Shown here piece after piece: positions 4,529 through 61,035 of a stretch of 64,000 nucleotides of DNA. The stretch comes from Candidatus Nomurabacteria bacterium (GTDB lineage: Bacteria > Patescibacteriota > Minisyncoccia > Phycocordibacterales > UBA2100). Position 1 is the stretch's first letter, and each line of letters begins with the position of its first letter. A program made the position numbers and the translations under genes. The stretch spans positions 22,308-86,307 of the forward strand of contig CALRFU010000003.1 in the NCBI GenBank assembly GCA_943356775.1, given 5' to 3'. Below the pieces are notes generated by a model that was not told the DNA's origin, searched no databases, and saw only the letters and a program-made list of their open reading frames with translations.

Positions 4529-5728
4529 ATGCCTTCCATGAAGAAGTTCGGAACCCCCTTCACCCCGTCCTCCGTCAAGCTGATGCTCCTTGGCTCAGGA
4601 GAACTCGGTCGCGAGGTGGTCATCGAGGCAATGCGGCTTGGGGTGGAGGTCATTGCGTGCGATAGATATGAGAACGCGCCAGCGATGCAATTCGCGCACC
4701 GCAGTCACACCTTCAACATGCGCGACGGTGCAAAAATTCGTGAGGTGGTGGAAATGGAGAAACCGACCTACATCGTTCCTGAGATTGAAGCCATCGCGAC
4801 CGACACGCTTGTCGAGCTTGAAAAAGAGGGCTGGACGGTCATCCCGACAGCGCGCGCAGCACGCCTTACGATGGACAGACAAGGTATCCGCCAGCTTGTG
4901 GCAGAAAAACTCAAGCTGCCGACATCAGCGTATCGTTTTGCCGGAAGCCTCGCCGAACTCGAAGCGGGCGCAAAGGCCGTGGGCTTCCCCTGCTACATCA
5001 AGCCGACGATGTCATCTTCAGGACACGGACAGAGCATGGCTCGGAAACCGCAAGATCTGGCGAAAAGCTGGAAATTCGCAATGGAAGGTACGCGCGCACA
5101 GACGGGCAAGGTCATCGTTGAAGGCAAAATAAATTTCGATTACGAAATTACGCTGCTTACGGTGCGACACGCGGGCGGAATAAGTTTCTGCGCACCCGTG
5201 GGGCACATTCAGATAGACGGAGACTACCGCGAAAGCTGGCAGCCACATCCGATGACGAAGACGGCACTCAAGAAATCTCAAGACATTGCACGAAAGGTGG
5301 TCAACGAACTCTGCGGTAAGACGGGTCGCGGGCTCTTCGGCGTCGAGCTTTTCATCAAAGGTAACAACGTGTGGTTCTCAGAAGTCTCCCCTCGCCCGCA
5401 CGATACCGGTATGGTCACGATGGTCTCGCAGACGATGAGCGAAATGGAGCTGCACGTGCGTGCAATTCTTGGGTTGCCAATAGGAGAAATCCCATGCCGA
5501 CCCGGTGCGAGCGTTCCCATTCTTGCCGAAACCAAGATCGACAACCCCGCCTACACTGGCGTTGACAAAGCACTCAAAACCCCCGGCACCTGGATCCGCC
5601 TCTTCGGCAAACCAATGTCCCCCGGCCACCGCCGCATGGGCGTCGCGCTCGCGATAGGCAAAGATATAAAAGAAGCTCGCAAAAAGGCGATGGCTGCGGC
5701 CAAAAAAGTTCGAGTTGTCGAAGGGTAA
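4529..5728 (+). CDS. purT: Formate-dependent phosphoribosylglycinamide formyltransferase (ATP-grasp)
   Basis: [27 protein letters not shown]-terminus and ATP-grasp architecture typical of PurT. ATG at 4529 chosen instead of the track start at 4367, which would overlap the convergent gene. Confidence 0.8.
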
Positions 5729-15627: not shown

Positions 15628-16291
15628 CTTTGTGTTAGCTCTATGTCGCCATAGAGTTCGGACTATATCTTCATCCGCTTTTTGCGGAGATTGGCGTGTA
15701 GTCTCTGAGGATTCTACCGTGCATTGCCTTTGCGAGCTCTTTCATTTCTTCGAATCCTTTATCCGTGAGATGAGTTTGAGCTTCAAAACGCTTTGCGATA
15801 TCCACGAACCTCTCGAAAGCAAACTTCTTGCTTTTAAAAAGCAATGGGTGCTTCTGAAAGAACGGGATAATCTTTGTCTTGATATCTTTGTAATTCTTTA
15901 CCTGATATTCAAGACAGTTCGAGAATGTTGGTCTTTCATCGATCTTCTTATAAACGATTCCGCAACGGAAGAAGTCACGAATTTCATACAAGATCATTCC
16001 ATCATCCTCTTTCAACTTAACTCCAAACATCAGTCGTACTCTCAAAGACTTGTATGTCTTCGAAAGATCTTGGCTCACGCTGACGGAAAAGTATCCTTCT
16101 CCATCAATGATGCCGACGACATAGTCGGGTGTTAATTTCGGTAGCCTTTCCTGCTGATTGCCTGCACTCAAAGCATTGTCACTCACGGGTACATTTTACC
16201 ACGTGAGTAGCCTGAGATTCTCAGATATTCCAGCATATAGCCAATTTTTTCTCCGGAGATTGCTCTCCGTGGTCGCAACAATTTAATCATA
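15628..16291 (-). mobile_element. Group I intron in 16S rRNA at the position equivalent to E. coli 1506 (GTCGT|AACAAGG)
   Basis: Exon sequence resumes exactly across the insert. Group I R element (TCAGAGACTACA, rc at 15706-15718) and S element (AAGATATAGTCC, rc at 15660-15671) are present near the 3' end. The 5' exon ends in U and the intron ends in G. Confidence 0.75.
15671..16186 (-). CDS. LAGLIDADG homing endonuclease encoded in the 16S intron
   Basis: VVGIIDGEGYFSVSVSQD LAGLIDADG motif. 171 aa. AT-richer than the host genes. Confidence 0.75.
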   Translation of the reverse strand: MSDNALSAGNQQERLPKLTPDYVVGIIDGEGYFSVSVSQDLSKTYKSLRVRLMFGVKLKEDDGMILYEIRDFFRCGIVYKKIDERPTFSNCLEYQVKNYKDIKTKIIPFFQKHPLLFKSKKFAFERFVDIAKRFEAQTHLTDKGFEEMKELAKAMHGRILRDYTPISAKSG

Positions 16292-16844
16292 ACGACTTAC
16301 TCTTTGTCATTGAGTTTGCCTTGGTACATTACGAGAATGTCCTTCGGGCACTCCCAACTTCCCTGAGTTGACGGGCGGTGAGTACAAAGCTTGAGAACGT
16401 ATTCACCGCGGTATGGCTGACCCGCGATTACTAGTGATTCCGGCTTCATGAGGTCGGGTTGCAGACCTCAATCCGAACTGGCGCCGCTTTTGAAAGATTT
16501 GCTCCGGGTTACCCCATTGCGCCTCGTTGTAACGGCGATTGTAGCGCGTGTGCAGCCCAGGACATCAGAGGGACATGCTGACTTGGCGTCATCTCCACCT
16601 TCCTCCCCCGTGAGGGGGCAGTCTCGCCTGATACGTGTAACAGGCAACGAAGGTTGCGTTCGTTACCCCACTGAAGGGAACGATTCAAACCACGAACTGA
16701 CGACAGCCATGCATCACCTGTCCTACACCCTCGAAGGCTTCCTAGCTTTCGCTAGGCGTGCAGTAGGATTTCTAGCCCTGGTAAGGTTCTTCGCTTAGCG
16801 ACGAATTAAGCCACACGCTCCACCACTTGTGCAAGCTCCCGTCT

Positions 16845-16876
<32 letters not shown>

Positions 16877-18180
16877 ACCCAGGCGGTCCGCTTAACGCGT
16901 TAGCTTCGCCTCAGAGAGGGTCGATACTCCCTAAAGCCAGCGGACATAGTTTAGGGCGTGGACTACCGGGGTATCTAATCCCGTTCGCTACCCACGCTTT
17001 CGTGCTTGAGTGTCAGGAACGCGCCAGTGCACTGCCTTCGCTTTCGGTATTCCCCATGATATCAACGGATTTCACCCCTACACCATGAGTTCTATGCACC
17101 TCTCACGCCCTCAAGTCGTGCCGTTTCGCCCGCGGATCCAGGGTTGAGCCCTGGGTTTTGACGGACGACTAACACGACCACCTACGCACTCTTTACGCCC
17201 AGTAATTCCGGGTAACGCTCGGGGCCTCTGTATTACCGCTCCTGCTGGCACAGAGTTAGGAGCCCCTTATTCATGAGGTAATGTCAATAACTTCTTCCCT
17301 CATAAAAGATGTTTACGCGCCGAAGCGCTTCATCCACCACGCGGTATCGCTCGATCAGGCTTTCGCCCATTGTCGAATATTCTCGGCTGCGGCCCCCCGT
17401 AGGGGTATGAGCCGTGTCTCAGTCTCATCGGTGGGGGTCAGCCTCTCAGCTCCCCTAAACGTCATAGCCTTGGTGAGCCATTACCTCACCAACTAGCTGA
17501 TATTACGCAGGCCGCTCCCAGAGCGAATTGCTCCTTTACTCTTACGAGACTATCCGGGATTACCTCACCTTTCGGCGAGCTATACCAGACTCTGGGGGAC
17601 GTTCCTACGTGTTACTACCTCGTCTGCCGGTGACCTTGCGGTCCCCTTGACTTGCATGCCTTATCCATACCGCCAGCGTTCACCCTGAGCTAGGATCAAA
17701 CTCTAAGTAAAGAATGACTCTCGTCATTCCCTCGCGTTTTCACTCGGGCGAAAATGAAAGCATAGCTCTCACCTCGTCTCCTCGCTATTGCGCAATTTAG
17801 AGATGTTAATGCTCTATTTAAGGATGGACGGAACAAAAGAATGTCGAAATCTTCTTTGCAGAAAATTTCGTCTCTCGTTCCAATTACTGTTTATTTACTT
17901 AACCATGAAATCCTCCTGAGACTCCATGATTATTTTCTGTTGTCTTGCTTTACCCTTCGTAGTCACGTCTAGATACACGTGACGAAGTAGGGCTTGTGTG
18001 TGTTTTCTTACCAATACTTTGGTTATGTATTGCGTACAATTGTTCTATTCAGTTTTCAATGTTCGTCCGAAGTCATTCATAGAAGTATTTCGGTGCATCA
18101 GCTCCCTCCCCCTATTTGGGGTCAAGTATGTAGAGGTTCGAGTGAACCTCAGACAAGCCATCAGGAGCGATGGTCGGAAG

Positions 18181-32407: not shown

Positions 32408-32517
32408 GTGTTGGCGCCGGCCTACTCTCCCTTGCGAGTACCATCGGCTCTGGAGGGCTTAACTGCCGTGTTCGGAATGAGAACGGGTGTAGCCCCTCCG
32501 ACAAAGCACCAACACGG
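32408..32517 (-). rRNA. rrf: 5S ribosomal RNA
   Basis: rc reads GTGTTGGTGCTTTGTCGGAGGGGCTACACCCGTTCTCATTCCGAACACGGCAGTTAAGCCCTCCAGAGCCGATGGTACTCGCAAGGGAGAGTAGGCCGGCGCCAACAC, with helix I closing and loop C/E motifs. Confidence 0.8.
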
Positions 32518-33674
32518 AATGCTCAAACGATATCCGTGTTCGCGGCTAACTAGAAATATGAGGTGTAGCTCACATCCAGAAAGCACCAACACGGAATGCT
32601 CAAATTGAGATTCCGTTCATTGAAACGAAGAGCGATAAGAAAGATTCGAAAACAATGTACCCTACTACGCTCCTCTCGGAGCTTCGAAGGGCAATGCGCG
32701 ACTCTCACAATTCCTTTCGAGAGTTCTGTCGGCGGATTAGTACACCTCGGCTACACGCATTGCTGCGCTTCCACCTGGTGCCTATCAACGTGGTCATCTC
32801 CCACGAGCCTCAAACGATTTCTGATCTTGGAGTTGGTTTCCCGCTTAGATGCTTTCAGCGGTTATCCTTTCCCGACATAGCTACGGGGCGATGCCACTGG
32901 TGTGACAGCCCCCAGACCAGAGGTCAGTTCATTTCGGTCCTCTCGTACTAGAAACGAATCTCCTCAAAAATCAACGCCTGCAGCAGATTAAGACCAACCT
33001 GTCTCACGACGGTCTGAACCCAGCTCACGTACCTTTTTAAATGGCGAACAGCCATACCTTTGGGACCTTCTCCAGCCCCGGGATAAGATGAGCCGACATC
33101 GAGGTGCCGAACTTCGCCGTCGATTTGGACTCTTAGGCGAAACCAGCCTGTTATCCCCAGAGTAACTTTTATCCGTTAATCTTCGGCCGCATCTAATGCG
33201 GACCGTCGGTTCACTATGCTCCGCTTTCGCGCCTGCTTGTCATGTACGACTCACAGTCAAGCCGCCTTTTGCCATTACACTATCGGCACGGTTTCCATTC
33301 GCGCCTAGGCGACCATAATAGGCTCCTCCGTTACTTTTTAGGAGGACAGCGCCCCACCGAAACTGTCCATCAGGTACTGTCTCTCTTGGGTTTCTCCCAA
33401 GAGGTTAGAACATACAGAAACGTAGGATGGTATTGCACTGGCGACTCCACCACAACCGAGATCATGGCTTCAAAGTCTCCCATCTATGCTACGCAACGCA
33501 CCCGTATATTCAATACCAAATTACAGTAAAGCTTCTGGGGTCTTTTCGTCTTGCTGCAGGAAGGCGGCATCTTCACCGCCCTTGTATTTTCACCAAGCAA
33601 ATCCCCGAGACAGTTCCCAACTCATTATACCATTCGTGCGCGTCTGAACTTACCAGACAAGGAATTTCGCTAGT

Positions 33675-34446
33675 TGTCAATCCACACATCGCTGTGCGGA
33701 ACGAACTCTATCTTCAAACAAGCACCGCTTGTTTGTCTGACGTGTGGTTTCTGGGGATTCTCTTAAAGTCGTCAACGACGTCTTGTTTTTCGTATTTCCG
33801 CTTCCTTCCCTTTCCTTCGTTAAGTTTTTCTCGCAATTCAATGATTCTCATAAACCCCTTGCGAGCAAGATGCTCTCCGGAGTATACGATCATCGCAATT
33901 TGTTTGAACAGCGCGAAGTTTCTGGTTTTGGATTCGGATTGAAAAGGAAACCGCTCAAAGAACGGGAATACCTTTTCTACGAGTTCGACGTAATTTGTCA
34001 CCACAAAGTAATGGACTCCATCACTTCGTCTTTGTAACCTACCGCACTGCAAATGTTTTTGCAAAAGCAGAAGATTGGTGACATCTCGTTGGGCTACATT
34101 GAAGGTGAGAACTACCTGCCATTGGAGTTTGTGATCCGGTCTTTGGCGGAGAGAAACACTGAAGCTTCCCTCGCCATCACTGAATCCTGACAAATACCAA
34201 CCCAAACTTTGGGAATTGATTGGCGGTGTGTTCATACGTCCAATTATAGCACCTGATTTCAAGAGTCTTTCCTGCTGATTGTCCGCACTTCAAGATTGTT
34301 ACTGTCTTGCGACTAGTACTTGAAGATACTCGGATTTCCCAGCATATGGTCAGATGTTTAAAGACATTTTGCTTTCGCAAAATAGGCAGCGTTCATGAGG
34401 ATAACCGTCCCAGTCCTTCCGCCACCCTCGTATTGAGAGGGGCGAA
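33675..34446 (-). mobile_element. Group I intron B in 23S domain IV (about E. coli position 1931, between CCTAAGGT and AGCGAAATTCC), carrying a LAGLIDADG ORF
   Basis: Exon segments CGTCCTAAGGT (34447-34457) and TAGCGAAATTCC (33661-33672) flank the insert. Degenerate R/S-like elements sit near 33730-33790. Shares the 90-bp 5' element with intron A. Boundaries are good to about 5 nt. Confidence 0.65.
33714..34262 (-). CDS. LAGLIDADG homing endonuclease encoded in 23S intron B
   Basis: LGWYLSGFSDGEGSFSVSLRQRPD LAGLIDADG motif, 182 aa. Confidence 0.7.
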   Translation of the reverse strand: MKSGAIIGRMNTPPINSQSLGWYLSGFSDGEGSFSVSLRQRPDHKLQWQVVLTFNVAQRDVTNLLLLQKHLQCGRLQRRSDGVHYFVVTNYVELVEKVFPFFERFPFQSESKTRNFALFKQIAMIVYSGEHLARKGFMRIIELREKLNEGKGRKRKYEKQDVVDDFKRIPRNHTSDKQAVLV

Positions 34447-34460
34447 ACCTTAGGACGATT

Positions 34461-34913
34461 CTCCTTTGTTAATCTGCTCGCGAATTAACAGTAGCTACGA
34501 GCAACTCTCTATGTCGCCATAGAGGCCGGACTATATCATCTCTGCTTTTGCAGAGTCCGACGTATAGTCTCTGAGGATTCTTGTGAACTTCAGTGAAAAA
34601 ACTATGCCTGTTTGTCCGGGTACATTAAATGAGTAACCACTGCTGCGATTGCAAGCGCAGCAAACGATACCCACGAACCCCTCAAACCTAAGAAATAGGA
34701 AACAAGAAGTAATCCTGCGCCAACCGCTCCAAAAATGAGCGATTTCTTCCAGGTTATTTTCATGTTTCTACTCTAGCACACTTTTCTCAATGAAGTTCAC
34801 AAGTCTTTCCTGCTGATTGTCCGCACTTCAAGATTTTCACTGCCTTGCGGCTAGTACTTGAAGATACTCGGAGTTTCCAGCATTTGGTCGGATTTTATAA
34901 CTACAATCATCTT
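34461..34913 (-). mobile_element. Group I intron A in 23S (about E. coli position 1915-1917, after AACTAT), no intact endonuclease ORF
   Basis: Exon GCGATAACTAT ends at 34914. Exon resumes as AATCGTCCTAAGGT at 34460-34447. R element TCAGAGACTATACG and S element AGATGATATAGTCC are present (rc of 34506-34582). Only a 53-aa hydrophobic ORF lies inside. Confidence 0.6.
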
Positions 34914-36338
34914 ATAGTTATCGCCGACATTGACCGGGGCTTATGTAGCGCCAGCCTTCATTCTTGCGAACGAAGACCGACCACATTTGACCTTCCGGCA
35001 TTGGTCAGGCATCACCCCCTATACATCCTCTTACGAGTTCGCAGGGAGCTGTGTTTTTGGTAAACAGTTGGTTGGGAAATTTTAACTGCGGCCCTTCTTG
35101 CGAAGGGCGGACCTTATCCCGAAGTTACGGTCGCTTTTTTGCCGAGTTCCTTGGGGATCTCTCACTTGTTCGCCTTACTCTACTCGAGCTGAACACCTGT
35201 GTCGGTTTGCGGTACGGTCCGCGCATGTTTATGCTTAGAGGTTTTTCTTGGAAGCGCGCTCTCTTGAATCTGCTTCGGCCGAGGCCTCCACATTTCCACT
35301 TCGCTCGGACTATAGGAACCGGATTTACCTGGCTCCCATCCTCACGACATGAACCCAAAACCAATAATGGGCCCAAGATACAGCACTCCGTCCCCCCGTC
35401 GCAACATGCGCAGGTCATGGAATATTAACCATGTGTCCATCGCCTTCGGCATTCGCCATCGGCTTAGGCCCGACTAACCCTTCGATGATCTCCATTGCGA
35501 AGGAAACCTTGTTCTTTCGGCGTGCGAGAATCTCACTCGCATTGCGGTTACTCGTGCCAACATTTTCACTTCTGTACGCTCCAGCATGGGTCACCCCTTT
35601 GCCTTCATTGCAAACAGAACGCTCTCCTACCACTTCACTTTCCCGAAGGAAAGAAAAATCCGCATCTTCGGTATCACGCTTAGCCCCGATCATTTGTGGC
35701 GCAAGATCTCTAAGTGAGTGAGCTGTTACGCTTTCTTTGAATGGTGGCTGCTTCTAAGCCAACATCCTCACTGTCTCTGAAATCTTACCTCCTTATTTGC
35801 ACTTAGCGTAAATTTTGGGACCTTAGATGGCGATCTGGGCTGTTTCCCTTTTGACCAACGGAGCTTCGCCCCCGTAGTCTAACTGCCGCGCTATTACCTC
35901 TGGTATTCGGAGTTTGATAGAGGCAGTGGTCTTTCGACCTATCCGCTTCTTCCAGTGCTCTACCCCCAGAGGGAACACACGACGCAAGCCCGAAAGCTTT
36001 TTCGGAGAGAACCAGCTATTACAACGTTCGATAAGCTTTTCACTCCAACCCACAAGTCATCCCAGGATGTTGCACAATCCAAGGGTTCGGCCCTCCATCT
36101 CTATTTCTAGAAACTTCAGCCTGCTCATGGGTAGCTCACGTTGCTTCGGGTCTGATACAAACGACAAACGCGCTATTCACACTCGCTTTCGCTACGGCTC
36201 CATGCTTTGTCGCACTTAGCCAAGCCGTTTGCATCAACTCGTTGGCTCATTCTTCAATAGGCACGCTGTCGAGGACATTGCTGCCCTCTTCAACTCCTTG
36301 TAGACATGTGGTTTCAGTTCTATTTCACTCCCCTCACC

Positions 36339-36381
<43 letters not shown>

Positions 36382-37319
36382 ATCTGAAGAAGTATGTAGC
36401 ATTACCGGTTAGTCCCGGCGAATTCACCCGAGCTATTCATGTCTCGAGCTACTCAAGAACTACAGCCATAGAGATGCTTTGATTTCGAGTACGGGGCTAT
36501 TACCCTCTGGGGCTCTGCTTCCCAGCAGATTCCTCTATCTAAGCATTTTTTTACTCTACCTATTGCTAGCGCTGTAGCCTTATAACCCCCATCCCCAAAA
36601 TCGACTCGCAAAATCTACTTTTGGTAAACTTGTGCGCTTCGATTTTGTGGCTGAGTTTGTGCTTTTCCCGTTTCGCTCGCCGCTACTAAGGGAATACCTA
36701 TTGGTCTCTTTTCCTCTCGGTACTGAAATGTTTTACTTCCCGAGGTCTGCTCTCTCAAACGTTTAAGTTGAGAGTTATCAAGGATTACTTGATAGGGTTG
36801 CCCCATTCGGAAATCTCCGGGTATAACGATTGCTTGGCATCTTACCGGAGCTTATCGCAGCTAAGCCGCGTCCTTCATCGCCTTCTTCAGTCTAGGCATC
36901 CACCACACGCCCTTACTCAGAACTCCCGCTAGGAATTCTAAGAACCGCGTATTGCACGCATCCCCTACAAGAGGGACACGTGACTTTGTTTTCTTGCCGC
37001 TTTTTTAGAAAGGAACGGCATCCTTTTTTGCTTTGTGTTTTTACAGCTACGTCTCATTCAGCAGAATGACCTACTGGGTTAAGACGCAGCATCCTGCATC
37101 TCACTTCGGTAGACTACACCGAAATAAGATTTTATTCTTCTTGTCCACCGTAGCCTTTCGACCACAGCGGATTTCTTTCTTTCTCGCTCTTCAATTTTCA
37201 ACGATCTACGTACAAGTCACGAAAAAAGCCGCTTGAAAGCGGCCTGGTCGCAGAGCTTGGGAGCTCGGCTACCTGTGCCACTTCGTGAAGCTTTTAAGCG
37301 ATAACATATACGTCGAAAG

Positions 37320-42709: not shown

Positions 42710-42982
42710 CTATTTTTTATACTCAAGCATCGTAGCAGCGGCAGCCGCTTGCTGCTTCTCGGCATCCTGTCCAGAGGTGTATTTTTGTACCGCATAAGTC
42801 ACGCCAAAACTTATTGAAATAAGCAAAGTGAATCCAAAAAGGAAGCGTGTGAACCCACTGAGTGGAGACGGGGACATTGGGTAATTGTATACGAATTTTG
42901 CCCTATACTGTAGGTATCCATGCATAGAGTGTTTGCAATCGCAGGGCTCGTGTGCGCGCTTCCCCTCTTCGCGAGTGCGCAA
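42710..42982 (-). CDS. Small hypothetical membrane peptide (questionable)
   Basis: ORF only. Overlaps the start of the 42920 plus-strand gene. Confidence 0.15.
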   Translation of the reverse strand: MRTREEGKRAHEPCDCKHSMHGYLQYRAKFVYNYPMSPSPLSGFTRFLFGFTLLISISFGVTYAVQKYTSGQDAEKQQAAAAATMLEYKK

Positions 42983-43696
42983 GCGGGGTTCCCCAATAAG
43001 CCCTTATGGCTATCCGTTACCAAACCAGTGGCGGGGGAAGAAATCTCACTCTCTACCGTCCTCTACAACGGCACCGAGACGGCGGTTGGCGGCACGCTGA
43101 CCTTCTTCGTCGATGATGCAAAATTGACGTCGCAAGACGTCTCGCTCGCGGCACAATCGAGCGATGCGGTCTCGGCAAAATGGACCGCGGTCTCCGGCAC
43201 GCATTCTTTCAGTGCAAGATTCACCACGGCAAGCGGCACCGCATCGACGCTCCCGCAGCAGACAAGCGCAATTCGAGTGACTGTCGCGGAGCCACCCCCT
43301 CCACCTCCCCCATCGGCACTACAGAAAAATGTAGAGCAGGTCACCGCCGTCGCTGGACAACTCGCATCATCTTCCGCGCCTTTTGTGCAAAAAGGGGTGC
43401 AGGCGGTATTCACACAAACCGAGGCTTTGAGAAACTCAGGCATCGCATACCTTAAAACAAAAGTGGAGGCAAAGAATGCTAATCCAAACGATTCGTCCAA
43501 CACCACAGGATTCGCAAGCACTACCGCAAAGTCATCTGGTACGACCTTACACAACATCAGCCAAACAGCGCTAGCAGCAGCGCTCTTCTCAATGCGCTCA
43601 TTATATATTTTCTATCCCGTCATCGGCATCGCATTTCTCTTCGCGCTCTACTGGGCGGCGAGAAAAGTCCGCCGCCCCCGCACTTACACCCCATAG
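42920..43696 (+). CDS. Secreted protein with signal peptide, poly-Pro linker and C-terminal TM anchor
   Basis: MHRVFAIAGLVCALPLFASAQA signal peptide, PPPPPPP run, C-terminal hydrophobic helix plus KVRRPR stop-transfer. Confidence 0.5.
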   Translation: MHRVFAIAGLVCALPLFASAQAGFPNKPLWLSVTKPVAGEEISLSTVLYNGTETAVGGTLTFFVDDAKLTSQDVSLAAQSSDAVSAKWTAVSGTHSFSARFTTASGTASTLPQQTSAIRVTVAEPPPPPPPSALQKNVEQVTAVAGQLASSSAPFVQKGVQAVFTQTEALRNSGIAYLKTKVEAKNANPNDSSNTTGFASTTAKSSGTTLHNISQTALAAALFSMRSLYIFYPVIGIAFLFALYWAARKVRRPRTYTP

Positions 43697-43734: not shown

Positions 43735-43776
43735 ACATACATAATAAGAATGCGGTCGCATTTTTATTATGTATGT
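43735..43776. repeat. 40-bp near-perfect palindrome, copy 1 (ACATACATAATAAGAATGCGGTCGCATTTTTATTATGTATGT)
   Basis: One of three copies of the ACATAATAAG-n-TGCGRYCGCA-n-CTTATTATGT element. Lies between convergent genes. Confidence 0.6.
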
Positions 43777-43781
43777 TGATT

Positions 43782-46649
43782 TTAAGGTCCGTATACCCAC
43801 GGAATCATAAAGTAGTTGCTGTGCGGCGGCGTACCGGCGCCGGTAGTGAAATAATTTCTGAATCGAGTATTATCGTCAGTTGGATAACTATCGAACGAAG
43901 AGCCGACACGCGCCTCGTAGATTGCGATGAAGAAGTGCTCGCCTACCTGCGGGTTTGATATCGAATCCGATTGGTTCGCACTCATGTATGCACGCCCGAG
44001 GAAATGTCCGTTCACGATAGTCGAACTAGCGACATCGCCCCGGTACAAATCTCCATATCTATTTGCCTGCGTGCTGATAGCGCGCATGAGGTATGTGCAA
44101 CTTGAAGACGTGGGCGTGTACTGTGCGCCATTTGAGATTGAGACCGTATCCGGGCTGCAGAACCATCCCGCACTCGGATTTCCATTTGAATTGTTTGCCC
44201 CCAGTGTTCCATAGATAACACTTGAGATACGGTCAAAAGCGCCTAGGGTATACCCATCGGCCGTATGCCAGCTTGCCGCAAGCGAACCGTCGAGCGAATT
44301 GTCCTTCCGCTCCATTGTGAATTGCGCGGTAGTTGTACCCGACTGCACTGAGTATCCGGCGGAACCCAGAGTAGCTCCTGCGCACCAGCCGCTACACACT
44401 GCGACAGGAGGTGTGGTATCGATTGTCGTCGTTGCGATACCATTTCCCCACTGCAATAGAAGCTGCTCTCCTCCGTCCGAGAGCTGCGTAAAATTCACGG
44501 TAACAGCATTCGGCGAACCTGCTGTTGTCGCCTCAGCATTCCGCTCAACTACGAAAAAGTCGTGCCCGGAGTTGTCTCCCGCGGCAGCTGCGGTTCCGGA
44601 GAGTTGGATGACACGACCCCCATCGGGAGTTGTGAGGACAAAGTGCGAGAGGTCGAGAATCGAATTCGTCATATTTCTCAACTCAATCGCCTCGTCTTCG
44701 GTAGATGCATTCGTGCCCGCCCACGCTATCTCATTGATGAGAAGCGGTTGTGTTGTGACGAACACGGCCTTTTCCGTTGATGTCGCCGCCATGCCATTTG
44801 ATTTATATGCGACTACGGAAAAGGTGGTCGTCGCCGCATTATTGATATTACTTGCCGTTGAGGTTGCGGTCGTTGTCGCCAAGGTTACGCCGTTCTTTAC
44901 CACTTCATAATATGTGGCGCCGGAGACGCTGCCCCATACAACGGCTACGGTGGTCGTCGCGATAGTGCAGTTTGTGGTAATGAACGATCCCGAACATTCG
45001 CTGATGGACACATCAGGTGCGCCGGGCGGAGTAACGTCAACAACGGCGGTGCGTGTCGATGTAGCGCTCGTCTCGGTAGAGGTTGCCGCCGAGAAAGAAA
45101 CCGTCGTTGTGCCCGAAGAAAGCAAAAAATTAAGTGCCCAATTTCCGCCGCTATCAGTTGTCGTTGTCGCGAATATGGAGCCATATGCCGCCGAAACTAC
45201 TGAGGAGGCGGACGTGGTGCCCGTAAAGGTAACGCTCGTCGTTGCAAAGAGCCTGTTTTCCTCCGGCGAAAGTATCGAGAGGGAAAGTGTCGATGATGAA
45301 GGGGTGTCTGTAGTTTGCGTGGGACTCCTGCCACCCGAACCTCCTGAACTACTTGCCGAAGATGAAGGGGCGCTTGTTTGCGGTTCAGCCGGAATCGAGG
45401 GCACAGACGAATCTTGCCTCGTCGTTTCCTCTGAAGGAGATATCGAAGCTCCTAATACTTTTGGCGCACTTTGCTTTTGTTGCTTATTATTCTGTTTCAC
45501 CTGCGGCGCAGGATCTTTATTTGATACCGTATTCTGCTGTGGTGGCGGATTGTTGGAAGTGGCAAGCGCGGCGGCACCGGCTTGCCCCGCGTTACGATTC
45601 AACAAATCCTCTACATCACTTTGCTCCAAACTCGAACCATATATTGCCTTTACAAGTGAGAATCCCGACGAGATTTCCTTATTACGCTGCTTGAGCGGGC
45701 TCAAATCCTTCTCTTTAAGTACTCCAGTCTGTTTCTCTTTTTCTACTTCACGAAAGAAGAGGTCGATGACCCCGATACCAGACTCAACCGCATGTCGAGA
45801 CAGGACGTTCCAGTAGTCGGACGAAACGGAGTTTGTTGGGTCATCCATCAAGTATTCGTATTCGATTACTATTCTTCCGTCTTTTCTATTTCGTGCCTCT
45901 TGAAGAAAAGCGAGCCTATATCCGCGTGTCGGATGATATGCGTAAGAGTTTTTCACGATTGCGGAGTCCTTGTCAGGCTGGACATAGCCTGCAAACAGAG
46001 TATCGTCACTCACAAAATTTTCATTAGTAAATCTCGCCGTAACATCAAATGCTTCCGCGGCAGTAGAAAATGTCTTGGGGACAACTTTGCCTGTAATGAT
46101 TACGTCCCCCTTAGTAAAAATACCCGAATATTTCTCATATGTGTCAGGGTCTCCAACCCCCAAGAGATTACCATGTGCATCATTCCTCACGTGTGCCGGC
46201 ACGGATGCATCCTCGATGAGGTGGAGCACGTGGCCCAGAGCCTCAGCAGCCCGGACAGTATCGCCATACGCATAATCAAATACTGCACGGTCCCACGTAT
46301 AGTCGTCGGGGCGCGCGAAATATGACTGCCAAGAATTGAGTGAGCCTCCCTGAGCCGTCTGATCGTTGACCCACTCCTTGGAAGACCTGAGGCGACCCCA
46401 TAGCCCCCTGTTGTTTATTGGATCGTAGAAGTGATATTTGAAGCGAAAGCTATCATCCTCTTCGTTGCTTCCCCGGACAATCGCGGTCTCCTGCTCTGAA
46501 GTGAATACGTCGCCGCGTAGCTTTTCATACTTTTGAACTAATGTGTGAGTAAGACCTTCGTGTGCTGGTACAGGATATGCGAAACAGACATTAGGTGCCC
46601 CAACTATCACCGCTACGCAAGTAGCGATTAGAGCTCGACGATTTTCCAT
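43782..46649 (-). CDS. Large secreted protein: N-terminal Zn-dependent phospholipase C / P1-nuclease-like domain, long Ser/Thr/Pro-rich linker, C-terminal lamin-tail-domain (LTD)-like region
   Basis: Signal peptide. HVLHLIEDASVPAHV matches the HxxxDxxxPxH zinc motif of the PLC/S1-P1 nuclease family. More than 300 aa of S/T/P low complexity. LINEIAWAGTNASTEDEAIELRNMTNSILDLSHFVL resembles the LTD NEx...EWIEL.N...DLSGW pattern. Confidence 0.6.
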   Translation of the reverse strand: MENRRALIATCVAVIVGAPNVCFAYPVPAHEGLTHTLVQKYEKLRGDVFTSEQETAIVRGSNEEDDSFRFKYHFYDPINNRGLWGRLRSSKEWVNDQTAQGGSLNSWQSYFARPDDYTWDRAVFDYAYGDTVRAAEALGHVLHLIEDASVPAHVRNDAHGNLLGVGDPDTYEKYSGIFTKGDVIITGKVVPKTFSTAAEAFDVTARFTNENFVSDDTLFAGYVQPDKDSAIVKNSYAYHPTRGYRLAFLQEARNRKDGRIVIEYEYLMDDPTNSVSSDYWNVLSRHAVESGIGVIDLFFREVEKEKQTGVLKEKDLSPLKQRNKEISSGFSLVKAIYGSSLEQSDVEDLLNRNAGQAGAAALATSNNPPPQQNTVSNKDPAPQVKQNNKQQKQSAPKVLGASISPSEETTRQDSSVPSIPAEPQTSAPSSSASSSGGSGGRSPTQTTDTPSSSTLSLSILSPEENRLFATTSVTFTGTTSASSVVSAAYGSIFATTTTDSGGNWALNFLLSSGTTTVSFSAATSTETSATSTRTAVVDVTPPGAPDVSISECSGSFITTNCTIATTTVAVVWGSVSGATYYEVVKNGVTLATTTATSTASNINNAATTTFSVVAYKSNGMAATSTEKAVFVTTQPLLINEIAWAGTNASTEDEAIELRNMTNSILDLSHFVLTTPDGGRVIQLSGTAAAAGDNSGHDFFVVERNAEATTAGSPNAVTVNFTQLSDGGEQLLLQWGNGIATTTIDTTPPVAVCSGWCAGATLGSAGYSVQSGTTTAQFTMERKDNSLDGSLAASWHTADGYTLGAFDRISSVIYGTLGANNSNGNPSAGWFCSPDTVSISNGAQYTPTSSSCTYLMRAISTQANRYGDLYRGDVASSTIVNGHFLGRAYMSANQSDSISNPQVGEHFFIAIYEARVGSSFDSYPTDDNTRFRNYFTTGAGTPPHSNYFMIPWVYGP

Positions 46650-47179
46650 TTTTGAGTAAATGGATTTAGTAGGAATCGAACGGAGAAAGGAACGCGTTCT
46701 CCCTGCGGGTACATTTCAATTGTAAATTTGCTCGCATCGACATGAGATATCGACCCTCTTTTCCCTTTCCTATATGCGTCAATAATATACTGATTAGCGC
46801 CTCCACCCTCTCCCAGAGTGTTCTCTTCGAGTGCCTCCTCTCGCTTCTCAACAATGAAATACTTACTCGCAAGTTCGTAATTCTTCGCCTCCAGAGCCTC
46901 GATAAAAAGATCGAGTGTCTTTTCCGGAGTAGAACCGCCGTACACGTCATTTCTGTACGCATCGGCGAGAGCCTCATTCTCGGCTTCATATTCTTCCCAG
47001 ATTGCCTGTTCTTCTCCGCGCAGACGCTCTATACCCCATTGCTCGACTTTCCATGGAATATACCAGGGCAAGTACAAAGCGGCCGGTACAAGTACAATCA
47101 CGATTCCCATCCAAAACCACCATTTCCTGTAAATTTTCTGCATATACAAAAAATTATCCCACAACCCTAACCTCTTCAT
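46628..47179 (-). CDS. Hypothetical membrane-anchored protein
   Basis: N-terminal TM helix (WWFWMGIVIVLVPAALYLPWYIPW) plus a charged soluble domain. Divergent from the PaaX-like gene. Confidence 0.45.
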   Translation of the reverse strand: MKRLGLWDNFLYMQKIYRKWWFWMGIVIVLVPAALYLPWYIPWKVEQWGIERLRGEEQAIWEEYEAENEALADAYRNDVYGGSTPEKTLDLFIEALEAKNYELASKYFIVEKREEALEENTLGEGGGANQYIIDAYRKGKRGSISHVDASKFTIEMYPQGERVPFSVRFLLNPFTQKWKIVEL

Positions 47180-47218
47180 GAAAACTTATCCCCACCCCCA
47201 GACTTTCCGCCAAATTTG

Positions 47219-47258
47219 ACATACATAATAAGCGTGCGACCGCACGTTTATTATGTAT
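47219..47258. repeat. 40-bp palindrome, copy 2 (ACATACATAATAAGCGTGCGACCGCACGTTTATTATGTAT), overlapping the ATG of the PaaX-like gene
   Basis: Same element as 43735-43776. Sits in the divergent promoter region. Confidence 0.6.
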
Positions 47259-47799
47259 GGGACTTGAAGCAGAACTCAAACAGGAAATACGGATGACTCG
47301 ACTCCGGAAGGCTATTTTGGCGACCGTTCAGATTGCCGGGATAATTACGCTCACTGCAATGGCCCCCAATATGCTTTCCCTACTCGGTAAGGTACCCCGA
47401 CGCAACCAAGAGAAATTAAAGTCGGCAGTCCGTAGACTTCAAGAAAAAGATCTCCTCCATGTCGGACCGGACGGTATACGTCTCACAGCCAAGGGAGAAC
47501 GATACATCCATACGACTGCACTGCGCCCTGTGCAACCTTGGCTCTGGGATAAAAAATGGCGCGTGGTTATCTTCGATATTTCGGAGAAAAAAAAGAAGCA
47601 ACGGAACCTCTTGAGATATACATTGATACATGTAGGTTTCCAGAAGCTTCAGAATAGCGTTTGGGTATACCCGTACGACTGCGAAGAATTGATTCTCTTG
47701 CTGAAAACCGACTACCGACTCGGGAAGGAGGTGCTCTATATGATTGTCGATAAGATTGAGAGAGATCTGCCGCTTAAGAAGCATTTTGAACTTACATAA
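47257..47799 (+). CDS. PaaX-family-like small transcriptional regulator
   Basis: WDKKWRVVIFDISEKKKKQRNLLRYTLIHVGFQKLQNSVWVYP matches the PaaX C-terminal signature W..W..v.FD.PE....R..LR..L...GFg.LQ.SVW. N-terminal helix-rich region present. Both its start and stop codons lie inside copies of the palindrome. Confidence 0.5.
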   Translation: MGLEAELKQEIRMTRLRKAILATVQIAGIITLTAMAPNMLSLLGKVPRRNQEKLKSAVRRLQEKDLLHVGPDGIRLTAKGERYIHTTALRPVQPWLWDKKWRVVIFDISEKKKKQRNLLRYTLIHVGFQKLQNSVWVYPYDCEELILLLKTDYRLGKEVLYMIVDKIERDLPLKKHFELT

Positions 47800-47829
47800 T
47801 AAGCATGCGACCGCATGCTTATTATGTAT
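47794..47829. repeat. Palindrome copy 3 (ACATAATAAGCATGCGACCGCATGCTTATTATGTAT) followed by a TTTTTTGGGGGG tract
   Basis: Contains the TAA stop of the PaaX-like gene. Could also act as a terminator. Confidence 0.6.
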
Positions 47830-60371: not shown

Positions 60372-60474
60372 ATATTATTGAATAAACCGAAGTTTTCAGA
60401 CTCCTCGGCTCGGCAATATGCGGATTAATCCGCATATTGCGCTCGCCCCACGTCGCCTGTAGAATGCTCGAAAC

Positions 60475-61035
60475 ATGTTGTCATACAATGAAGTAAAGCC
60501 CGGGGTCGCCGTCCTTATCGAAGGCGAGCCCTATGTCTGCACGTGGAATAACATCATGCAGAAGCAGCAGCGCCGTCCGGTCAACCAGACGAAGATGCGT
60601 CATATCATTAAAGGTAATTCCATCGAGCACTCGTTCCAACAGAATGACAAACTGACCGAGGCCGACATAGAGAGGCGAACTGCGATGTTTATTTACGAAC
60701 GCAACGGCGAGTGGATATTCCATGACCTCAACGACAAATCGAAGCGCTTTTCAGTCACCGAAGAAATGATGGGAGGTTCCGGAAAATTCCTCAAAGGAAA
60801 TACTGAGGTCGAAACCTTGTGGTTCGACGAGAAACTCTTCCGCGTTAAACTCCCTATCAAAATTGAGCTCAAGGTCACCGAAGCGCCACCAAACACTCGC
60901 GGAAACACGGCCCAAGGCGGCAGCAAGGTTGTAACACTCGAAACAGGTGCGCCTCTCGATGTACCCATGTTCATCAATCAGGGCGACGTCATACGCGTCA
61001 ACACTGAAACGGGAGAGTACGCTGAGCGCGTCTAG
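60475..61035 (+). CDS. efp: Elongation factor P
   Basis: KPGVAVLIEGEPYVC N-terminal KOW-like region. C-terminal GNTAQGGSKVVTLETGAPLDVPMFINQGDVIRVNTETGEY. Confidence 0.85.
   Translation: MLSYNEVKPGVAVLIEGEPYVCTWNNIMQKQQRRPVNQTKMRHIIKGNSIEHSFQQNDKLTEADIERRTAMFIYERNGEWIFHDLNDKSKRFSVTEEMMGGSGKFLKGNTEVETLWFDEKLFRVKLPIKIELKVTEAPPNTRGNTAQGGSKVVTLETGAPLDVPMFINQGDVIRVNTETGEYAERV

Follow-up and report, generated by a model that had tools for sequence, protein, structure and literature searches.

Three near-identical palindromes lie in a 64,000-nucleotide (nt) stretch of DNA from Candidatus Nomurabacteria bacterium (GenBank assembly GCA_943356775.1, contig CALRFU010000003.1, positions 22,308 to 86,307 of the forward strand). 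This whole stretch is hereafter referred to as the window, and positions are counted from its first letter. Two of the palindromes, copies 2 and 3, enclose a gene for a protein of 180 amino acids (aa) that resembles the transcriptional repressor PaaX. Based on a comparison with homologous loci, we conclude that the palindromes are probably operators, that is, the cognate double-stranded DNA sites of this PaaX-like protein. Such an operator, most likely bound by a dimer of the PaaX-like protein, had been one of two possibilities named in an earlier reading of the letters of the window, the other being a family of structured repeats; this reading is called the sequence-only reading below.

Three palindromes and the gene between two of them

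The palindromes match the pattern ACATAATAAGNNTGCGRYCGCANNCTTATTATGT at 43739-43772 and 47223-47256 with one mismatch each, and at 47794-47827 with no mismatch. None of 100 dinucleotide shuffles matched this pattern, and the similarity described in the sequence-only reading is real. A looser pattern consisting only of the arms returned the same three sites. A custom scan, which tolerated up to 9 mismatches in the 28 specified positions, still found no site but these three in 64 kb, and all copies fall inside 4.1 kb. The limits of the palindromes given here count the outer paired bases beyond the ACATAATAAGNNTGCGRYCGCANNCTTATTATGT match.

43735-43776, no strand: palindrome copy 1 (P1), between the convergent 3' ends of a 258-aa gene (+) and a 955-aa gene (-)
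47220-47259, no strand: palindrome copy 2 (P2), in a 77-bp divergent intergenic region
47257-47799, + strand: gene for the 180-aa PaaX-like protein, Pfam PaaX_M (PF20803), E = 1.6e-19
47793-47828, no strand: palindrome copy 3 (P3), a perfect 17+17 bp palindrome, followed by TTTTTTGGGGGG

Copies 2 and 3 are 535 nt apart, with the PaaX-like gene between them. The ATG of this gene (47257-47259) sits in the right end of copy 2 and its stop codon TAA (47797-47799) is inside the left arm of copy 3, as had been noted before. The earlier placement of the remaining copy between convergent genes is also correct, the genes at 42920-43696 (+) and 43782-46649 (-) ending on either side of copy 1. Copy 1 lies at the distal end of the operon transcribed away from the PaaX-like gene. 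Three independent Logan contigs of the P0006 lineage, described below, begin in the middle of copy 1, which indicates that assemblers break at the repeat. Each copy can be folded into a stem of 16-19 bp with a 4-nt loop, GACC or GGTC (z of about -5.5 to -7). No Rfam family matched at the palindromes. No CRISPR repeat-spacer array was found in the window, where no search was aimed at cas1. The elements are single palindromes of 36-40 bp with no body, and no target-site duplications were noted in the flanks that were read, so that the elements differ from miniature inverted-repeat transposable elements (MITEs).

The site-gene-site layout in other genomes

A scan of 185,579 species-representative genomes with a strict DNA pattern returned 7 sites in four metagenome-assembled genomes (MAGs) of Parcubacteria, with at most 2 per genome. 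The motif search that had been suggested in the sequence-only reading gives, in this strict form, few copies and no high-copy scatter. In locus L004 (loci are designated by L numbers), two strict sites bracket a homologue of 45% identity. Homologous loci were also collected starting from the protein; L007-L009 were obtained by exact-protein look-up, and 80 further loci were taken from metagenomes. Nearly every homologue has its own palindrome directly ahead of the ATG in the upstream regions that were read, and the sequence of the palindrome differs by lineage.

To find second copies, the upstream 73 nt of each gene were compared with their own locus by blastn-short, and matches were counted from -30 to +150 nt of the stop codon. 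A second copy, with 84-100% identity, is present at the stop codon in 57 of the 80 loci (71%), compared with 6 of 300 (2%) when control genes from the same loci were used. The arrangement is also carried by independent assemblies, and a 99%-identical protein (P0001) is encoded in the lake MAG assemblies GCA_943354425.1 and GCA_943357115.1. Third copies within a few kb are occasional (window, L007, L058, L086, L079 and L033).

Two loci show how the unit can be duplicated. Locus L015 (953-2669) has two tandem PaaX-like genes (1019-1597 and 2052-2627), each with its own upstream and downstream palindrome, and the duplicated unit is therefore the whole of site, gene and site. In L058, the third copy and the downstream copy (1004-1070 and 2048-2120) share about 30 nt beyond the palindrome, ggtggttttttgttttggttcacaaaatac, which means that the duplicated segment was larger than the palindrome.

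Wherever identical proteins occur, the gene context is the same as well. Viral contigs contain no relatives, and an association with phages or plasmids was rejected on this ground. A conserved partner gene was also sought and none was found; the neighbours are not conserved between the major lineages and are diverse housekeeping genes, which argues against a conserved target. Among the open reading frames and neighbours examined, in the window or in the 80 other loci, we noted no paa genes, and no transposase or recombinase adjoins the PaaX-like gene. The next gene is convergent in 25 of the 41 loci that have a downstream palindrome, and -10-like hexamers in the downstream copies are at background. 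The idea that the downstream copy generally serves as the promoter or operator of the next gene was rejected for these reasons.

Anatomy of the palindrome

The palindromes were aligned on their centres. Clear palindromes, with at least 14 of 20 pairs, were found in 115 of 156 sequence windows beside homologous genes, compared with 3 of 217 control windows. The 115 clear palindromes give the following profile, counted from the centre.

Positions 2-4: palindromy 0.88-0.99, position 3 being an invariant C
Positions 5-10: palindromy 0.56-0.74, a relaxed spacer
Positions 11-18: palindromy 0.85-0.99, with low information content
Position 20 onward: palindromy at background

The element can be described as a tripartite palindrome of about 36 bp. 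There is a conserved GC-rich core, a relaxed spacer of 6 bp on each side, and two outer half-sites of 8 bp, which are about 29 bp apart, centre to centre. The low information content of positions 11-18 shows that the outer half-sites are lineage-specific. The profile is alike in the upstream and the downstream copies. The family consensus reads roughly TACA-NN-AWW-N5-GCKR on one side of the centre and YMGC-N5-WWT-NN-TGTA on the other, 36 bp in all, and the copies in the window conform to it. The commonest core is GCTATAGC. The window has GCGACCGC/GCGGTCGC, and other lineages have GCGGCCGC, CGATCG, CCTATAGG or CCGACCGG. The site of the L058-type lineage is TACATGTAT/GCTATAGC.

The stems are AT-rich (GC 0.25-0.45) and have a fixed length of about 36 bp. 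The non-Watson-Crick positions of the downstream copies comprise 37 G.T, 29 A.C and 60 other pairs, with no strand-specific excess of wobble pairs, and a T-run follows 16 of 53 downstream copies. Discrete contact zones with a relaxed middle zone, the lack of a wobble excess and the small share of copies with T-runs all point more to a protein that covers duplex DNA than to the stem of an RNA. The distances between sites range from 571 to 733 bp and show no periodicity at 10-11.5 bp. As a test of DNA looping, the helical phasing of these distances is uninformative for loops of that size.

The PaaX-like protein

The 180-aa protein is composed of an N-terminal winged helix and a Cas2-like central domain. 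Its match to PaaX_M has a score of 70.2 bits against a gathering cutoff of 24, and PF20803 is present in all 120 of 120 homologues among those listed. The family comprises 554 clusters at 50% identity (E <= 1e-30). There is no match to PaaX_C or to the N-terminal PaaX family of Pfam, and the PaaX equivalog model TIGR02277 reaches 28.3 bits against a cutoff of 264.55, covering only residues 51-144; the protein thus stands outside the PaaX family proper. The Cas2 models that match the central domain are TIGR01573, with 27.9 bits against a cutoff of 24.5, and the Pfam model, which is borderline with 23.1 against 23.8. No other defence-system models match the protein. Homologues are often labelled 'Cas2' or 'PaaX' in the source databases, and the present analysis corrects the common misannotation 'CRISPR-associated endonuclease Cas2'.

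A search with the family profile gave just two significant matches in the Protein Data Bank, Rv0674 (3kfw) and E. coli PaaX (8a39), which span the wing of the winged helix and the Cas2-like domain. The structural search with Foldseek placed the same two proteins at the top, 8a39 with 3.8e-4 and 3kfw with 4.3e-4, followed by Cas2 proteins. The AlphaFold2 model has a mean predicted local distance difference test (pLDDT) score of 72. This score is about 90 in the Cas2-like part, and the N-terminal part is of low confidence. Residues 18-43 (in the window segment 47257-47400) are strongly hydrophobic, ILATVQIAGIITLTAMAPNMLSLL, with a pLDDT of 40-44. They are probably the first helices of the PaaX-type winged helix, a membrane segment being an alternative.

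The N-terminal motif MGxLE is conserved across the family, which makes ATG 47257 the probable true start. Met13 (47293) was considered as an alternative start and rejected, as it is not conserved while MGxLE is. Within the first 12 codons, the changes relative to L007 are mostly at third positions.

The aspartate of the first β-strand of Cas2, D107 (WRVVIFDI; codon 47575-47577), is invariant in the alignment of the family from the Candidate Phyla Radiation (CPR, or Patescibacteria). This position is occupied by different residues in E. coli PaaX (8a39) and in Rv0674 (3kfw). An invariant D107 would be compatible with retained metal binding or nuclease activity.

Co-variation of sites and proteins

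The relation between sites and proteins was examined by partial Mantel tests over 59 loci with distinct proteins. The similarity of the outer half-sites follows the identity of the winged helix-turn-helix (wHTH) residues 48-80, with r = 0.46 and a partial r of 0.445 (p = 0.001) given the Cas2-like domain. It is not correlated with the Cas2-like domain given the helix-turn-helix (-0.106). The similarity of the core follows the Cas2-like domain given the helix-turn-helix, with a partial r of 0.144 (p = 0.001), and its partial r with the recognition region, 0.029, is not significant. This dissociation of half-site and core suggests a division of contacts, in which the winged helices would read the outer half-sites and the Cas2-like dimer would lie over the core.

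The orthologous sites have changed in concert within lineages. The window has ACATAATAAG..TGCGACCGCA, and the P0006 lineage (L091; 79% identity) has ACATAATAGT..CGCGGGCGCG at all three positions, the sequence at the positions of copies 1, 2 and 3 being ACATAATAGT..CGCGGGCGCG..ACTATTATGT. In L007 (53% identity), the palindromes that stand where copies 1 and 2 are in the window have CTGCAGATATAA arms. The site sequence of this locus is CAGATATAA.

Position of the upstream site relative to the predicted promoter

When 79 distinct upstream regions were aligned at the ATG, T(-12) A(-11) ... T(-7) stood out as conserved positions. A Shine-Dalgarno signal was absent from these regions. In 37 loci, 6 nt separate the hexamer from the ATG, and in another 23 loci the gap is 7-8 nt. 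A -10 box so close to the ATG, together with the lack of a Shine-Dalgarno signal, implies that the mRNAs are leaderless, and the upstream copy usually carries the -10 box 6 nt ahead of the ATG.

Two classes can be distinguished. Class A comprises 24 of 61 loci, with the centre of the palindrome near -18; here the -10 hexamer falls within the relaxed spacer on the promoter side, and the outer half-site contains the ATG. Of 28 class A sites, 19 have a -10-like hexamer at this position, compared with 7 of 28 in the mirrored arm and 7 of 54 in the downstream copies. In class B, the palindrome covers the -35 region and is upstream of a TATAAT that stands 6-7 nt before the ATG. The upstream site thus overlaps either the -10 box and the transcription start or, in class B, the -35 region. 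The window belongs to class A, the centre of copy 2 being 17.5 bp ahead of the ATG.

Two promoter-like features overlap copy 2.

47249-47254, + strand: TATTAT, 2 nt ahead of the ATG of the PaaX-like gene and the only TAnnnT hexamer near it (compare L010 and L091)
47279-47250, - strand: sigma-70-like promoter match TTGAGT-18-CATAAT, with the -10 in the right arm of copy 2, towards a 183-aa gene

The minus-strand feature is a consensus match only, and the number of such matches in the region is not above that in shuffles. Control of the divergent operon for the 183-aa and 955-aa proteins by copy 2 is plausible. The earlier proposal that the regulator controls neighbouring surface-protein genes may thus apply to the window, where copy 2 has this promoter-like site, and it cannot be generalised to the family, since the neighbours are not conserved.

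Neighbouring genes and related loci

The genes around the PaaX-like gene and copy 1 are the following.

46628-47179, - strand: 183-aa gene, transcribed away from the PaaX-like gene, with a hydrophobic segment at the N-terminus of its product and no match to any family
43782-46649, - strand: gene for a secreted or surface protein of 955 aa, which comes second in the divergent operon and has its stop 6 nt from copy 1
42920-43696, + strand: 258-aa gene, which converges on the 955-aa gene, with copy 1 between them

The 183-aa gene is the first in the operon that ends at copy 1, and it is a candidate target of copy 2. Its divergent arrangement with the PaaX-like gene is kept in L010, L003 and L007. 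The position of copy 1 is kept in L003, in L091 and, with L007-specific arms, in L007. The label 'PLC/LTD', which the 955-aa protein had been given, found no confirmation; the match to LTD is below threshold (E = 0.057) and there is no match to a PLC family. Overall, the neighbours of the PaaX-like gene in the window are surface or membrane proteins and a Wzy-like ligase.

Locus L003 (Nomurabacteria Ike-100m-40, CALRHH010000002.1; 4868-4981) is syntenic with the window, and the PaaX-like gene is gone. A single, slightly degenerate palindrome, ATACGTAATAAGCCTGCGACTGCGCGCTTATTATGTA (4909-4946), is located between a 185-aa gene and the Wzy-like gene. This palindrome joins the left flank of copy 2 to a right flank like that of copy 3, and the junction looks like a palindrome-to-palindrome deletion. 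In the P0006 lineage (L091 1-345 and 840-970; also L090 and L092), the 955-aa and 183-aa genes are cut to short remnants, and all three palindromes are kept with a lineage-specific sequence. Loci L002 (6212-6243) and L006 (6227-6258), from two other Parcubacteria MAGs, have a window-type palindrome, extended to about 46 bp, that separates two convergent genes; an A-run precedes the palindrome and a T-run follows it. Judged by the appearance of their N-terminal sequences alone, the flanking genes are RelA/SpoT-like and ParB-like. There is no PaaX-like gene within these two 8-kb loci.

Some features elsewhere in the window are of separate interest. The 16S (16255-17711, -) and 23S (32716-36928, -) rRNA genes of this CPR/Parcubacteria genome are unlinked, with about 15 kb between them. 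The 23S gene is 4.2 kb long and has a group I intron (features at 34507-34923 (-) and 32409-32513 (-) in the same region). A 101-nt direct repeat at 34258-34358 and 34796-34896, of 89% identity, is accompanied by a related 40-nt stretch beside the 16S gene (16134-16173), which suggests a second, related insertion. A perfect 28-bp palindrome, GCAATATGCGGATTAATCCGCATATTGC, is found at 60413-60440, about 35 nt ahead of an ATG at 60475 and with a TAGAAT hexamer in between; it looks like the operator of some other regulator.

Discussion

The proposal of an autoregulatory operator bound by the PaaX-like dimer gains comparative support from the frequency of the second site at the stop codon of the homologues relative to control genes. 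It is further supported by the overlap of the upstream site with the predicted core promoter, the co-variation of half-sites with the wHTH, the concerted change of the sites and a geometry like that of the PaaX operator. We propose the following model. The protein would form a dimer joined through the Cas2-like domain, with one winged helix on each outer half-site and the Cas2-like dimer over the core. Copy 2 would be the main operator, as it overlaps the start of what is predicted to be a leaderless or near-leaderless transcript of the regulator. It also overlaps the likely promoter of the divergent operon for the 183-aa and 955-aa proteins, and binding would repress both units. Repression at copy 2 would be negative autoregulation by steric hindrance, as with E. 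coli PaaX at Px. Each of the two divergent transcription units has one of the other copies, 1 or 3, at its 3' end, and these are most likely auxiliary sites. They may take part in cooperative binding or looping with copy 2, or they may set up a protein roadblock or an insulator that holds off convergent transcription and read-through. A further role of the two, confined to this window, may be to terminate plus-strand transcripts.

The E. coli PaaX site is TGATTC-N27-GAATCA, with a span of 39 bp, and PaaX represses its own Px promoter by hindering RNA polymerase (PMC9493321). Like PaaX of E. coli and Pseudomonas, the protein described here has a winged helix at its N-terminus and, in the middle, a Cas2-like domain for dimerisation. 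The sites also have in common two short inverted half-sites about three helical turns apart, with a span of 36-39 bp (PMC9493321). In the family described here, a site usually lies over the predicted promoter of the regulator itself, as in PaaX, which would imply negative autoregulation by steric hindrance. However, the protein has 180 aa compared with about 305-316 aa in PaaX, and the C-terminal domain that binds phenylacetyl-CoA is absent. The sites of the family have an extra GC core, which is palindromic and conserved. In 71% of the family loci another site comes after the stop codon, and the mRNA would be leaderless. The Cas2-type aspartate is retained in the CPR family, and the paa genes that accompany PaaX were not noted nearby.

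The family can also be compared with the C proteins of restriction-modification systems, which are small, autoregulated DNA-binding proteins with a palindromic operator, the C-box, over their own promoter. Transcripts of C genes are often leaderless. However, C proteins have an Xre-type helix-turn-helix of unrelated fold, C-boxes are tandem and found upstream only, with no site after the stop codon, and no restriction-modification genes were noted among the open reading frames of the window that were examined. With the Cas2 proteins of CRISPR systems, the protein shares the central domain, which scores as Cas2, and the conserved aspartate of the first β-strand. It differs from them in its N-terminal wHTH, and the palindromes enclose the gene itself and not a repeat-spacer array. 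A literature search found nothing that links PaaX with Cas2-like proteins or with Patescibacteria, or that describes this arrangement. The family can be described as a shortened PaaX-type regulator that comes with a probable tripartite operator of its own. It is widespread in Parcubacteria, and the bracketing of the gene by its sites is unusual.

Several observations weigh against an operator function. Copies 1 and 3, as well as sites in L002, L006, L079 and L033, lie between convergent 3' ends, where a promoter is not expected, and classical operator logic does not explain sites in such places. L003 retains palindromes although the PaaX-like gene is absent from the locus. The perfect palindromes of 46-52 bp in some lineages are longer than a dimer needs. 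Shared ancestry is a confounder of the co-variation, and evolution is faster in the wHTH region than in the Cas2-like domain. Finally, in the clade of the window the TAnnnT hexamer is 2 nt and not 6 nt from the ATG, which makes occlusion of the promoter less clear there.

Some of these observations recall repetitive extragenic palindromic (REP) sequences and their REP-associated tyrosine transposases (RAYTs), in which a gene is likewise bracketed by its cognate, lineage-specific palindromes and extra extragenic copies are often found at convergent ends. In a REP/RAYT-like or cassette-like system, the wHTH-Cas2-like protein would cut, move or recombine the palindromes, and the whole would be a domesticated or selfish unit. 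We consider this unlikely, and it is similarly doubtful that the protein is, perhaps in addition to being a regulator, an enzyme that nicks, resolves or recombines hairpins or cruciforms formed by its own flanking sites, as a low-copy module with a Cas2 fold and excisable segments. The bracketing of the gene in 57 of 80 loci, the extragenic copies, the single junction palindrome of L003, which appears as after an excision, and the tandem duplication of the whole unit in L015 would all fit. The same is true of D107, invariant in the family and not present in E. coli PaaX or Rv0674, of the unconserved neighbours, of the long perfect palindromes, and of the operon between copies 1 and 2, which is variable through insertions and deletions (remnants in the P0006 lineage). 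The copy number and the positions of the sites speak against mobility. There are three copies in 64 kb, all clustered, and no more than two strict matches in any of the genomes scanned, that is, single-digit copies compared with the tens to hundreds of REPs. Sites are conserved in position among distant relatives, orthologous positions being kept down to 53% protein identity, and identical proteins never occur in two contexts. Moreover, the upstream copy is built into the promoter, with the -10 box at a fixed register, and the relaxed middle zone takes the place of a continuous stem. No target-site duplications, adjoining transposase or recombinase, or relatives on viral contigs were found, and the protein is of the wHTH-Cas2-like type and not a Y1/HUH transposase. 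A REP or MITE family was rejected on copy number and positional conservation.

The palindromes could also act at the RNA level, as intrinsic and partly bidirectional terminators or as protective stem-loops, their similarity being incidental or due to gene conversion. Every copy folds stably as RNA, and a lenient scan called copies 1 and 3 terminator-like on the plus strand, where T-runs follow the stem; the palindrome between convergent genes in L002 and L006, with its flanking A-run and T-run, has the same appearance. The earlier suggestion that copy 3 doubles as a terminator is therefore compatible with the window, but it does not extend to the family, in which a T-run comes after only 16 of the 53 downstream copies. 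The AT-rich stems of fixed length are unlike typical terminators, and a strand-specific G.U excess is lacking. The upstream copies precede or overlap the predicted leaderless start and would not be transcribed as complete hairpins. A terminator would need neither the conservation of the sequence nor its co-variation with the protein, and no Rfam family matches in the region. A pure terminator or RNA hairpin was therefore rejected as a general explanation, and we regard an RNA-level function of the palindromes as very unlikely; the few copies, the inconsistent T-runs and the lack of a wobble bias together argue against both a REP or MITE family and a pure terminator. That the three copies are an artefact of local duplication, or resemble each other by chance and have no function, might be thought from their location within 4.1 kb. 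However, no shuffle matches the pattern, dozens of independent lineages repeat the arrangement with different sequences, and independent assemblies carry it. This family-wide recurrence refutes a duplication or chance origin for practical purposes.

CPR bacteria are ultra-small, cannot be grown alone and have very few recognisable regulators. To our knowledge, almost nothing is known about the control of transcription in this group. If the palindromes are operators of the PaaX-like protein, the family offers a predicted binding site for each of its members and a predicted recognition code, in which the half-sites correspond to the winged helix and the core to the Cas2-like domain. It would form a natural specificity series and give a handle for defining regulons straight from metagenomes. 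The family also displays a recurring leaderless promoter design and a PaaX-type scaffold without the ligand domain. Should the enzymatic alternative be true, the family would represent a new class of low-copy, REP/RAYT-like modules built on a Cas2-fold nuclease. With the palindromes as operators, the second site at the stop codon, which often faces a convergent gene, may point to roadblocks, insulation or gene looping in these compact genomes.

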